Virus record (IMG/VR): IMGVR_UViG_2579778786_000003
DNA: 4,116 bases
Reading direction: 5' to 3' (one strand)
Source: a virus
Lineage: Duplodnaviria > Heunggongvirae > Uroviricota > Caudoviricetes > Drexlerviridae
Part shown: piece by piece, positions 266-4,116 of the stretch
Numbering within the stretch: position 1 is the stretch's first letter
Layout of the letters: each line of letters begins with the position of its first letter
Program-made: the position numbers and the translations under genes
The notes under the pieces: model-generated
What the model saw: the letters and a program-made list of their open reading frames with translations, nothing else
Told to the model about the DNA's origin: nothing
Database searches by the model: none

Positions 266-583
266 CTAAACAACCGCATTGTCCTGGCGCACATCGCAGA
301 TAGTAAACGTCACGACGCCGATGACATTAACATCGTCCAAGGCCTCGCCCTCGATCGCTTCGCCATCTTCGGTAATCAGCGACTTTCCTCTCAGCGTGGC
401 AAGCTCCGTCCCGCCGCCGTGCTGGATCAGAACCTGACTACCTTGTGATGGCTTCAGGGAGATATCCAGCACAACGTAACCGCCTGAACGCTCGAAGAGG
501 CGCGTATTTGGCCCAACACTGCAGATCGAGTTAACCGTTAATCGCTGTTCCGTGTAGTCCGTCGCCGGTGATGGAAAGCCCAT
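266..583 (-). CDS. Hypothetical acidic protein (105 aa), second gene of the coupled operon
   Basis: ATG at 583..581 is preceded by GGGGAGGA (598..591) with a 7-nt spacer, embedded in the 3' end of the upstream gene. It runs 105 codons to TAG at 268..266. Protein: MGFPSPATDYTEQRLTVNSICSVGPNTRLFERSGGYVVLDISLKPSQGSQVLIQHGGGTELATLRGKSLITEDGEAIEGEALDDVNVIGVVTFTICDVRQDNAVV. Net acidic, no signal peptide or transmembrane segment apparent. The ORF track uses an upstream GTG (616) that would overlap the first gene by 34 nt; ATG 583 is preferred. Confidence 0.65.
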   Translation of the reverse strand: MGFPSPATDYTEQRLTVNSICSVGPNTRLFERSGGYVVLDISLKPSQGSQVLIQHGGGTELATLRGKSLITEDGEAIEGEALDDVNVIGVVTFTICDVRQDNAVV

Positions 584-822
584 TACAGAATCCTCCCCAT
601 GTTGGCCATCATCCACAGGCAGTTTTCACTATGCTCTGCCGTTTTGTCGACGAAATACGTTTGCTCGCGTGCGATCCAGGAGTTCGCCTCCACCTCGGAA
701 AAATGGATGCCGCGCCGGCGCAGCGCGGTAACGAAGTCGCGGGTGTGAAGGTACTGGAACCCCTTGGAACTGCGCAATACCGACTCGCGGAACGCCGCTG
801 CGATGTCTGACTGTCGAAGCAT
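583..822 (-). CDS. Hypothetical small basic protein (79 aa), first gene of a translationally coupled two-gene operon downstream of the tail fiber
   Basis: ATG at 822..820 is preceded by GGGAGGG (835..829) with a 6-nt spacer. It runs 79 codons to TAA at 585..583, which overlaps the ATG of the next gene (TAATG). Protein: MLRQSDIAAAFRESVLRSSKGFQYLHTRDFVTALRRRGIHFSEVEANSWIAREQTYFVDKTAEHSENCLWMMANMGRIL. It is Arg-rich with no hydrophobic segment. The ORF track starts this frame at an upstream TTG (837); the ATG with the SD is preferred. Local GC is about 60-65 percent. Confidence 0.65.
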   Translation of the reverse strand: MLRQSDIAAAFRESVLRSSKGFQYLHTRDFVTALRRRGIHFSEVEANSWIAREQTYFVDKTAEHSENCLWMMANMGRIL

Positions 823-834
823 GATCTGCCCTCC

Positions 835-866
835 CAATAATACTGCACAAACATACAGTATTATTG
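835..866. repeat. Perfect 11-bp inverted repeat (CAATAATACTG, 10-nt spacer, CAGTATTATTG) in the stf to gene A intergenic region, abutting the gene A Shine-Dalgarno
   Basis: Plus strand 835..845 is CAATAATACTG and 856..866 is CAGTATTATTG, which are exact reverse complements. On the minus-strand transcript the 3' arm ends at nt 835, which is also the first G of the SD GGGAGGG. Confidence 0.7.
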
Positions 867-893: not shown

Positions 894-3800
894 TTACATT
901 AACTTCAAAACAGCAGAAACGATCGGCAGCCCACCTCCAGTTGCAGGGTCAGGATGGATTCCATCAGCATTGAACCAGTTGCGTGGAGATGTCGATGCGT
1001 AATCAGATGGCTTGTCTCCGTAGTCAATCTGGAGATTGTGATAAGCCACCCTGTTTAGCGCACAAACATCCCGTACAACAGACGCATACGCCGCCATTGC
1101 CACATTGTTATTCCTCTGGTTTTCACATGGCATGATCACCAGAACATCAGCCAACGGGCATGCAGTGCGAACTGCTGTGATTATCGTCTGAATATCGGCA
1201 GCAAACGCGGATGGATCACGGGATGATGTCTGGTCATTGGTCCCATGCAGAATTGTCACCAGATTGGGGGCCAGCGCGGTGAATGCTGCTTTCCATGTTG
1301 CGCTGGTAACCTGCGCCGCCCATTGTTGAGCAGAACTCCCCGTCGCACCCAGCTTGTGAGACCGGACACCATCTGTCGCGGTCTGCACATCCAGACCGTA
1401 CAGTTCAACGGTTCCTGATACCGGACTGAACCAGATATTGAAAGCTGTTGCCGGTACCGTGAGGCTGACAACCGCAAGGTCAGTGAACGTGCTCAGGTCG
1501 ATAGTTGTCCAGTTAACTCCACCATCTGTGCTGTATTTAACACTCCCCTGAGGTTTAGCAAAAAGGCGGACTGACGATGCATTTGCCGGTATACCGTTCG
1601 CCCTGAAAGTAGCGGTGGTATCAGAAGACGAGACGCTACAAATATCTGCGCTCTGTGCTGCCGCATATGTCGGAGTCCATGTTCCTGTTTTGGTCAAAGT
1701 TATCTGACCAAGTATATTGCCGTTATACTGCCCGAAACCCGCCTCAGACGGATAGCCAAATCCGATATAGCCGATACCTGCACTGCCATAGTCAGCCTGC
1801 ATTTTTCCGGCAAAAATTCCGCTCCATCGGTTCCACAGGTGAGTCCAGCTATCGCCAATGTGCGCTGTTACCAGTGTTGCTGACTGAGAAAGCCGCCTGT
1901 TCATCAGGCGCTTATGTGTCTCTCTGAGTGAATCCTGATTTAACGTGAATGCTCTGGAAGTTGTGTAATCGACATCCTGTCGGTACGTATCATCACTCAG
2001 TACAGGAGAGCCATTCCCAACAAAGAGCCCCCTGGCAACAACATAAACACCTGCAGCGCCAACAGTCTGCCCATTCATAAGGCGGATTTGCAGATATCCA
2101 GCCGTATCAACAATAGTCTGGGTGATAGCTATTGTGCGAACCAGAGTCTGATATTGCTGGGTTGGGAACTGGAACAACTGAGACGAACTGTCACTAATAA
2201 CAGTCCCGCTAGCCGTCCGGAAATATGCTGCCACGTTGATTGCCTGAGACGATACCACACCCAGCGCTACTGTCAGCGAATCTCCAGCACGCAGTCCAAG
2301 CCGCTTTGCTGAAATGTTAATATCCGTCTGACCACCACCTACTGGGATAATCAGAGATTTTTTCCTAAGAAACGGGCTGCCAGAATAATCCGCAACATAT
2401 GCTGGTAGTGAAACCCCTGCTACTTGAGCAGGACCCCAACCATCAATACACGTTTCCCCGCACTCGTAGCGGCGATACCAGGGATCAGGCCACAGGTTAA
2501 TCTGCTGGCGCTGGTATCCTGAATACTCTGCTGGAAGGCTACCGTAAATAAACTCAGGGCGAGATCGTCCGAAAGCTACACCTATGGCAACCAGCTCCTT
2601 GACCATAGCCCCTGATGCGCGAAGCGTAAGGTATGTCGTTGATGCTGGTATTGTCAGCGTGGTACTTCCATCATTAAAGCCGGATGCTGATGCGGCAATA
2701 GTTGCCGAAGAAAGTACTCCGGATGCATTACGACAGAAAACCTGAAACGTGCCACCCGTTGACGCGAACCATGCAGCCAGACGGACAGTGATTGTGTCTC
2801 CCGGCTTAACCCCCATCGAACTGAGAGAAATAATACGATCAGCACCAACTCCTGACGTGTTTTGGATCCCGGTCTTACCCCATGGTGAATTTGCGCTGTT
2901 CTGAATCAATGTTCCTGCGTAACTCATGGCGTCAACCACGCCTGCAGGAAGTCCTTGCTTAGGACGAACGGAAAGCATCTCGCCAAAAGGGTCGTACACG
3001 AGGTTATCAGGGGTACCCAATGCCTCCTGGTACGCTTTTGAAGGGAAAGACCTTGTGAATTCAGGAGTAACATCACCAATAGCTGCGGCATAGACACCGA
3101 TTTTGAACGCCCCTGACACAGTGTTTTGCACCCGAATTCGTATGGATGATGCGCCAGATGGCACAGCAATGACCACAACCGGAGAGGATATACCAGCAAC
3201 CAGTGGAGAGGCCTCCCCTGTAGTGATGGTTACTCCTGCTGAATCAAGCCAATAAATCTGTAACTTGCCTCCAGCGTTCTCGAACCATACCAAAACAGAG
3301 AAAGCTAAAGTGTCTCCTGGTTTTATCTGTAATTTTGACACATCGTAATATTTATCAAACGATGTTACACCAGAAGCTTGAATAACAGGTGTTGGAAGCG
3401 GCAAATTAACATCAGTAGTAGAAAATGTTGGCGTAGCGCCTTTATACCAATCCCAGTTAGCGAATGTTAAAAGGCTTGAGGAATATTCATTAAATGCGTC
3501 GAATAAAATGTTGCCTCTACGCAAAGCGGAATACGCTGGAATTTTTCTTCCGGTTGCTACCAACGTACCAGCGGTATTGATAACCTCAATTGAAAGATTA
3601 TTGTCATCTGAGCTGCGATAATAAGCAGTTGATCCCACCGGTATATTACCCGCAGCTGCGTCTGCCTGCGCCGCAGCCAGCGTCGGAAACTCGCGGATTG
3701 TCCCTGTTATGGCTGCCGTGCCTGGCTGCTTTGCCTGCAATACGGCCACGCCAGCATTGTTTTGATACTGCCATGCAGCAGAAAGCGCATCTGGCCCCTG

Positions 3801-4116
3801 AGCTACCCAGAACGACTGGCCGTCAGTAGTTGCTGCCAACCCTGCAATGGTGCCATCAGGATCGCTGGCAGTCTTATAGAACGTGAACTTATTCTGTGCG
3901 TAGTCAGAAGCGTTATTTGCATACTCTTCAGCCTGTGCTGCTGAACCTGCGGCTGCCGTTGCCGATTCGGATGAGGCTGCTGTGTTCTGCGCCACTGCGG
4001 ACGCGTTACGCGCCACCTCTTCCACCATCAGTTCAAAACGGCGCAGTGCCTCCGGACGGGCATCATCCTCCGTCATGGCACCGAGAAAATCATTCAGCGT
4101 ACCGGGTCGGGAATCT
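894..4116 (-). CDS. stf: Side tail fiber protein, 5'-partial (start outside window): lambda Stf-like N-terminal segment, three tandem beta-rich modules, C-terminal SGNH/GDSL hydrolase (putative polysaccharide esterase/deacetylase) domain
   Basis: One uninterrupted minus-strand frame from the window end to TAA at 896..894. The frame stays open upstream of the ORF-track Met at 4076: in-frame codons 4115..4077 read DSRPGTLNDFLGA, so the ATG at 4076 is an internal Met. The segment DSRPGTLNDFLGAMTEDDARPEALRRFELMVEEVARNAS matches my recollection of lambda Stf (...PGTLNDFLCAMTEDDARPEVLRRLELMVEEVARNAS...). The C-terminal ~320 aa carry the SGNH signature blocks (see separate feature). Confidence 0.9.
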   Translation of the reverse strand, partial: DSRPGTLNDFLGAMTEDDARPEALRRFELMVEEVARNASAVAQNTAASSESATAAAGSAAQAEEYANNASDYAQNKFTFYKTASDPDGTIAGLAATTDGQSFWVAQGPDALSAAWQYQNNAGVAVLQAKQPGTAAITGTIREFPTLAAAQADAAAGNIPVGSTAYYRSSDDNNLSIEVINTAGTLVATGRKIPAYSALRRGNILFDAFNEYSSSLLTFANWDWYKGATPTFSTTDVNLPLPTPVIQASGVTSFDKYYDVSKLQIKPGDTLAFSVLVWFENAGGKLQIYWLDSAGVTITTGEASPLVAGISSPVVVIAVPSGASSIRIRVQNTVSGAFKIGVYAAAIGDVTPEFTRSFPSKAYQEALGTPDNLVYDPFGEMLSVRPKQGLPAGVVDAMSYAGTLIQNSANSPWGKTGIQNTSGVGADRIISLSSMGVKPGDTITVRLAAWFASTGGTFQVFCRNASGVLSSATIAASASGFNDGSTTLTIPASTTYLTLRASGAMVKELVAIGVAFGRSRPEFIYGSLPAEYSGYQRQQINLWPDPWYRRYECGETCIDGWGPAQVAGVSLPAYVADYSGSPFLRKKSLIIPVGGGQTDINISAKRLGLRAGDSLTVALGVVSSQAINVAAYFRTASGTVISDSSSQLFQFPTQQYQTLVRTIAITQTIVDTAGYLQIRLMNGQTVGAAGVYVVARGLFVGNGSPVLSDDTYRQDVDYTTSRAFTLNQDSLRETHKRLMNRRLSQSATLVTAHIGDSWTHLWNRWSGIFAGKMQADYGSAGIGYIGFGYPSEAGFGQYNGNILGQITLTKTGTWTPTYAAAQSADICSVSSSDTTATFRANGIPANASSVRLFAKPQGSVKYSTDGGVNWTTIDLSTFTDLAVVSLTVPATAFNIWFSPVSGTVELYGLDVQTATDGVRSHKLGATGSSAQQWAAQVTSATWKAAFTALAPNLVTILHGTNDQTSSRDPSAFAADIQTIITAVRTACPLADVLVIMPCENQRNNNVAMAAYASVVRDVCALNRVAYHNLQIDYGDKPSDYASTSPRNWFNADGIHPDPATGGGLPIVSAVLKLM
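897..1862 (-). other. SGNH/GDSL hydrolase catalytic domain inside the tail fiber CDS
   Basis: Block I HIGDSWTH with the nucleophile Ser codon at 1850..1848 (GDS = 1856..1848). Block III LHGTNDQ (GTND = 1244..1233). Block V NADGIHP (DGIHP = 965..951) a few residues from the C-terminus. The order Ser, Asn, then Asp-x-x-His is canonical for SGNH esterases. All codons were checked by hand against the sequence. Confidence 0.8.
2007..3371 (-). other. Three tandem, diverged ~115-130 aa beta-rich repeat modules within the tail fiber (putative carbohydrate-binding modules)
   Basis: The repeated protein pattern is visible by eye. Module 1 (about nt 3371..3027): VSKLQIKPGDTLAFSVLVWFENAGGKLQIYWLDSAGV ... 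IGDVTPEFTRSFPSKAY. Module 2 (about 2864..2517): LSSMGVKPGDTITVRLAAWFASTGGTFQVFCRNASGV ... FGRSRPEFIYGSLPAEY. Module 3 (about 2354..2007) is weaker: LGLRAGDSLTVALGVV ... AAYFRTASGTV. Boundaries are approximate. Confidence 0.55.

Follow-up and report, generated by a model that had tools for sequence, protein, structure and literature searches.

A triplicated module of predicted carbohydrate-binding fold precedes the SGNH esterase domain of a lambdoid prophage tail fibre

We analyzed a stretch of 4,116 nucleotides (the window; IMG/VR record IMGVR_UViG_2579778786_000003, assigned to Drexlerviridae), which is 100% identical to part of the chromosome of Escherichia coli CFS3313 (NZ_CP026939.2), where the host element is a lambdoid prophage at tRNA-Pro and yejM. 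In this prophage (locus L001) the gene order runs J, lom and then a big minus-strand open reading frame (ORF), which thus occupies the side-tail-fibre (stf) position. The ORF is listed at 894..4076 (-) with 1060 residues counted from the first ATG, and its frame is still open at the window edge (nt 4116); the listed version is shorter than that of the source genome because the window cuts the ORF, which runs there uninterrupted for 1152 residues (L001 16352..12894). We describe in its product three homologous beta-rich modules followed by an SGNH esterase domain. Residue numbers below are those of the window ORF.

The protein begins in the window with the end of a lambda-Stf-type "prophage tail fibre N-terminal" domain (3957..4116, minus strand; PF08400, E 5.2e-11), of which residues 1-40 cover profile positions 93-132. 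A stalk follows, Ala-rich and then mixed in composition (residues 41-185; 3522..3956, minus strand), and phrog_19652, phrog_31000 and phrog_14987 cover residues 21-195. The stalk DNA is common to many Klebsiella and Pectobacterium phages, and the phage DNA matches stop at nt 3541-3550, which places a mosaic junction just ahead of the first module. Pfam matches are limited to the two ends of the ORF, namely the Stf N-terminal domain (residues 1-40) and the C-terminal GDSL/SGNH domain, while phrog_38670, labelled "tail fiber protein", spans the entire window protein (E=0, profile positions 154-1276 of 1280). Its nearest relatives are Klebsiella prophage proteins with 96-97% identity. Both the PF08400 domain and the gene position after J and lom are those of a lambda-type Stf, but the Tfa-dependent receptor-binding tip of such fibres is replaced here by an SGNH domain.

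Between the stalk and the esterase lie module 1 (M1; residues 186-350; 3027..3521, minus strand), a predicted jelly-roll with the fold of a carbohydrate-binding module (CBM), module 2 (M2; residues 355-520; 2517..3014, minus strand), a member of the same family, and module 3 (M3; residues 523-703; 1968..2510, minus strand), a diverged form recognized through profile-profile and hidden Markov model (HMM) matches, which has two short insertions and directly adjoins the esterase. Three position-specific subtypes of the family, named after these copies, recur among relatives, as described below. An N-terminal strand motif, N[IL]xxD[AP][FW], stands at residues 189, 358 and 527 with a period of exactly 169 residues. 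A preliminary description of this DNA, made from the letters alone, had proposed three related segments carrying KPGDT-like and PEF motifs, and these occur where it put them: KPGDT at residues 252 and 424, RAGDS at 596, and PEF at 338 (PEFTRSFPS) and 507 (PEFIYGSLP). The range it gave, nt 2007-3371 (residues 236-690), falls within the array and omits the first ~50 residues of M1 and the last ~13 of M3; similarity reaches ~50 residues further toward the N terminus, where the segments align with their counterparts in the divergent homologues P0017, P0019 and P0020. Its term "fiber shaft" was loose, as the modules are predicted to be globular jelly-rolls distal to the N-terminal stalk and outside it.

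The copies have drifted far apart: pairwise identity among them is about 20-25%, blastp of the protein against itself returns the identity match only, and a DNA-level repeat is undetectable in nt 1900-3560, as the preliminary description had remarked. For self-comparison we used Smith-Waterman alignment with shuffles together with profiles. Aligning shallow first profiles with hhalign gave P 2e-9 for M1-M2 and about 1e-3 for the pairs that include M3. A first jackknife HMM was partly circular regarding M3, since it contained M3-type sequences of other proteins, and it was replaced for this reason by type-specific profiles of M1-like (n=20), M2-like (n=20) and M3-like (n=26) sequences, sorted from the 127 matching proteins introduced below. 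With these profiles all three pairs are significant, each over ~155 columns (P 3e-34 for M1-M2, 9e-18 for M1-M3 and 3e-20 for M2-M3), and the M3 of the window is matched by HMMs made only from the M1-type (5e-10) or only from the M2-type (2e-16) modules of other proteins. The profile-profile and cross-type matches show that the three modules are homologous, that the beta-rich module was triplicated within the protein, and that M3 is a true though diverged copy; they bear out the triplication and the kinship of a divergent third module that had been read from the motifs, by the kind of formal self-comparison that had been suggested as a check.

When 1.84 billion representative proteins were searched exhaustively with the module profile in HMMER, 127 representatives matched at E<=1e-3, all less than 50% identical to each other; a word-index homologue search gave close relatives only, and the distant ones came from the exhaustive search. 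Modules could be counted with confidence in 90 of the 127 proteins, with 1 copy in 40 of them, 2 copies in 38, 3 copies in 10 and 4 copies in 2. Of these 90, 67 have a window-like SGNH region after the modules, and among 10 sampled homologues 7 have a GDSL-family (SGNH) Pfam match at E<=1e-3, which in 6 exceeds a Pfam gathering score. Module family and SGNH domain thus show a strong association in the tail-fibre loci of phages. Its members also keep their places: in three-module proteins the first copy is of M1 type in 7/9, the middle copy of M2 type in 6/9 and the last of M3 type in 8/9, many two-module proteins are arranged M2-M3 or M1-M3, and the M3 type is the last module in relatives, mostly no more than about 40 residues away from the SGNH domain. 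A Burkholderia vietnamiensis homologue located after Mu-type baseplate genes has four modules, and the "tail fiber" gp19 of BUCT541, an isolated Klebsiella siphophage, has one full module, a weaker partial second (E 4e-5) and an SGNH domain. Because the order M1, M2, M3 is kept in distant relatives, both it and the triplication are ancient, and since this order is conserved in proteins that are less than 50% identical, other bacterial classes included, the duplication predates the spread of the cassette among different phage types. An old duplication had been one of two origins suggested for the array from its lack of a DNA repeat.

Judging from their arrangements, the modules also behave as recombination units. 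In three Klebsiella proteins (P0019-P0021) an M1-type module precedes two copies of an unrelated ~130-residue repeat (…YINKSNG…VYYNA…), after which comes a distinct SGNH domain; these proteins represent the "tandem beta modules plus esterase" design in a second form. The tail spike of myophage vB_KpnM_NDO71 (P0018; OP558001.1, about 30631-31197) shares with the window the stalk and the first ~125 residues of M1 (window 3148-3714), at 84% DNA identity and about 90% protein identity, and then continues into an unrelated C terminus with a Peptidase_S74 chaperone domain, so that the recombination breakpoint lies inside the jelly-roll.

The SGNH/GDSL esterase domain occupies residues 704-1060 plus the stop codon (894..1967, minus strand) and thus follows directly on the modules, as had been supposed. 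It scores above the Pfam gathering cutoffs of both PF13472 (E 5.6e-14; 53.5 bits, cutoff 32.9) and PF00657 (32.2 bits, cutoff 23.6). The signature blocks are present, with the Ser in block I GDS (residues 741-743; 1848-1856, minus strand), the Asn in block III GTND (residues 945-948; 1233-1244, minus strand) and the Asp-x-x-His of block V DGIH (residues 1038-1041; 954-965, minus strand). In an alignment of 52 C-terminal regions, comprising the window protein and 51 homologues, S743, N947 and H1041 are conserved in 52/52, G741 in 50/52, D742 in 49/52 and D1038 in 44/52, and to judge by this alignment the window protein retains an intact catalytic Ser, Asn and His. The position of the block II Gly is uncertain owing to a beta-rich insert of ~130 residues between blocks I and III (residues 775-905; 1362..1754, minus strand), which contains an Asp-box-like STDGGVNWT (Pfam BNR, E 0.13). 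The similarity of this insert to the module is weak and local (module-HMM E 1.2e-3; hhalign P 2e-3 over only 32 columns), which is too little for us to call the insert a fourth copy. Ancillary domains inserted in SGNH folds are known from CE20 esterases, as described in part of PMC12313940.

What fold do the modules adopt? AlphaFold modelled M1, given a 47-sequence family alignment, at a pLDDT (predicted local distance difference test) of 95.6 and a pTM (predicted template modelling score) of 0.90, and this model is a beta-sandwich jelly-roll of the CBM4/16/22 type. Its structural neighbours are a porphyran-binding CBM (8xmz, score 12.5), CBM22 (2w5f, 1h6x and 4xup, 11.2-11.8), CBM16 (2zew, 10.9) and CBM4 (4bj0 and 1gui, 10.2-10.8), as well as phage proteins: CBA120 TSP4 (5w6h, 11.1), the Klebsiella phage Kp7 fibre gp52 (7xyc, 10.6) and KP32gp38 (9qrm, 10.0). 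The top Foldseek match in the PDB is the K2-2 tailspike (8iq9, E 2e-7), and BFVD neighbours are phage tail proteins, several of them labelled "CBM-cenC domain-containing". M1 is thus predicted to adopt a CBM-type beta-sandwich with a fold like that of type-B CBMs (CBM4-, 16- and 22-like). At the sequence level no Pfam family matches the module; scanning 47 members gave sub-threshold matches to CBM_6 (E 0.0039) and CBM_35_2 (E 0.032), in 1 member each, and the module profile run against PDB sequences returned no CBM and only spurious weak matches such as Peptidase M23 (E 0.03). "CBM" here describes fold and likely function, not family membership, because similarity to an established CBM family fails for every one of them.

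The surroundings of the gene bear on its origin and on how it has been annotated. Downstream, at L001 11324-12093, lie a partial pseudogene of an stf C terminus (11908-12093) and a separate tail fibre assembly (tfa) gene; the persistence of this remnant and of tfa suggests that the SGNH fibre cassette, along with two small ORFs, displaced most of the ancestral stf gene. The RefSeq/PGAP annotation divides the intact 1152-residue ORF into a "pseudo" tail-fibre N-terminal fragment and an "SGNH/GDSL hydrolase" coding sequence, which begins at a GTG (V246, nt 3341) within module 1; this split is an annotation error. Directly after the fibre gene comes a small ORF (window 583-837, minus strand; 79-84 residues) that RefSeq calls "hypothetical", with zero matches in NCBIfam, the sole library scanned, and its stop overlaps the start of a second small ORF (window 266-616, minus strand) with UmuD/HumD-like sequence (NCBIfam NF051876, E 1e-10, under the cutoff). 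Many Klebsiella phages retain the latter beside fibres of this type. It has SGGYV at the site matching the UmuD catalytic motif, presumably SGDSM, and its product may be a catalytically dead S24-like protein.

We consider it probable that the protein is a side tail fibre, and so a receptor-binding protein of the lambdoid prophage, in which three CBM-fold modules target a polysaccharide for an SGNH O-acetyl esterase. In the proposed layout, the Stf-type attachment domain and the stalk would carry three paralogous jelly-rolls of ~169 residues and then the O-acetyl-esterase domain. The modules, to go by the CBM fold and by precedent, would attach to the polysaccharide of the host surface, be it O-antigen or capsule, holding and orienting the chain, while the esterase would strip O-acetyl groups in the manner of the coliphage G7C tailspike gp63.1. 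The outcome would be a reversible, enzyme-coupled adsorption by which the virion works its way to the outer membrane. Multiple CBMs increase avidity for polymeric ligands in carbohydrate-active enzymes, and avidity was the role that the preliminary description had in mind for the array. The low identity of the copies, the conservation of position-specific subtypes and the direct adjacency of M3 to the esterase suggest that a division of labour fits better than three equivalent, redundant binders. Since each position keeps its own subtype and M3 is fused to the esterase, M3 probably belongs to the platform on which the enzyme holds its substrate, and M1 and M2 may give reach, extra binding sites for avidity or a second specificity. 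One result weighs against the proposal as it applies to the whole array: M1 alone was modelled confidently, and the AlphaFold model of all three modules was poor (mean pLDDT 48.7, 18-sequence alignment). The strands predicted for M2 and M3 line up with those of M1 in that poor model, which we use for strand register only, so the comparison with CBM folds that had been proposed for each module gave a CBM-type beta-sandwich for M1 and strand register alone for M2 and M3.

The modules could instead be structural spacers that extend the fibre, set the distance of the esterase or pack three chains, with no sugar-binding site of their own. A likeness of fold is no proof of binding, as toxins and other proteins use the same fold; no CBM sequence family matches the modules, and the range of 1 to 4 copies among relatives is what length-tuning spacers would show. 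We nevertheless think this unlikely. Simple fibre spacers are usually Ig-like, coiled-coil or beta-helical repeats, and among the nearest structural neighbours of M1, genuine CBMs and phage tailspike domains that bind sugars overwhelmingly predominate. The subtypes, moreover, are kept at their positions over long evolutionary distances, which suggests that selection has acted on the surface of each copy and not on bulk alone.

A bolder extension of the proposed polysaccharide-targeting fibre, to which we give still less credence, is that the modules constitute an uncatalogued CBM family dedicated to phage esterase fibres, whose three position-specific subtypes have distinct jobs. M1 and M2 might then recognize the acetylated polymer, and M3 might feed it to the esterase or bind the deacetylated product. 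If so, a directional mechanism of binding, deacetylating and stepping would carry the virion down through the layer of O-antigen or capsule, and the order M1, M2, M3, conserved in lambdoid and Mu-like phages of Gamma- and Betaproteobacteria, would reflect a functional assembly line and not simple avidity.

It is more doubtful again that receptor binding depends mainly on the modules rather than on the esterase, and that their target is not the esterase substrate but, for example, another glycan epitope or a protein of the outer membrane, which would make this a dual-specificity fibre. In P0019-P0021, M1-type modules have been recombined with other repeats downstream and with a distinct SGNH domain, and in the NDO71 spike the stalk is joined to only the first ~125 residues of such a module; both arrangements show that M1 can move without M2, M3 and the esterase. 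The identity among the subtypes is only about 20-25%. The M3 type, however, is tightly linked to the esterase, the NDO71 copy of M1 may not even fold because it is cut within the domain, and a protein receptor is without evidence. Least credible by far is that the similarity of M3 to M1 and M2, or among all three, is a compositional artefact of beta-rich sequence full of Ala, Gly, Ser, Thr and Val, given the type-specific alignments of M3 over ~155 columns (P 9e-18 and 3e-20), the motifs in identical register at an exact 169-residue period and the coinciding predicted strands of the modules.

Going by parts of PMC13123978, few receptor-binding proteins of temperate phages of Klebsiella and E. 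coli appear to be commoner than SGNH-esterase fibres, and their catalytic domain alone is usually annotated. With the three-module array, the "unannotated" mass of such fibres is for the most part explained. Its boundaries can serve expression constructs and the engineering of chimeric fibres, and the modules mark the likely seat of host-glycan specificity. The result is a useful dissection and no surprise, and the current understanding of such fibres stands.

How does the protein compare with known systems? The coliphage G7C tailspike gp63.1, presumably PDB entry 4QNL, is likewise a receptor-binding protein pairing an SGNH esterase with CBM-like beta-sandwich domains, and it deacetylates surface polysaccharide rather than cutting it, which is the mode we propose by analogy for the window protein; it differs in sequence (no match was found), in domain order and in virion context. 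Its combination of an SGNH domain with CBM-like domains is described in passages of PMC12625404, and it is cited as an SGNH O-antigen deacetylase in passages of PMC13123978 and PMC12625404. The Klebsiella prophage fibres 164_08-KL2 and 174_38-KL55 are also tail fibres of temperate phages with a C-terminal SGNH domain. In the sections of PMC13123978 (PLoS Biol 2026) that deal with them, SGNH fibres are reported as common in Klebsiella prophages, these two as esterases active on pNP-acetate with a "brush-like" C-terminal architecture, and G7C-like deacetylation is proposed for the group. Those passages annotate the SGNH domain only, with the preceding modules unmentioned, and the words "sandwich", "carbohydrate-binding" and "jelly" are absent from the main text. 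The tandem CBM22s of xylanases (Paenibacillus Xyn10C CBM22-1-CBM22-2, 4xup), together with CBM4 and CBM16, show 10-16% identity to the module and no profile-level match; in the CBM22 xylanases the catalytic partner is a glycoside hydrolase and the proteins are secreted bacterial enzymes, whereas the modules of the window accompany an esterase in a phage fibre. In phrog_38670 the whole protein family is already catalogued, but under the label "tail fiber protein" only, with no dissection into domains and with the internal triplication unrecognized. The kind of protein, an SGNH esterase with CBM-like domains in a phage receptor-binding protein, is therefore known and its family is already in PHROGs and RefSeq, whereas the ordered triple of ~520 residues from one unclassified CBM-fold family, widely tied to SGNH fibres, was found neither in Pfam nor under the PHROG label nor in the literature searched. 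Taken together, these comparisons make the window fibre a fairly ordinary variant of the known sugar-deacetylating phage fibres, built with a module family that has yet to be catalogued.
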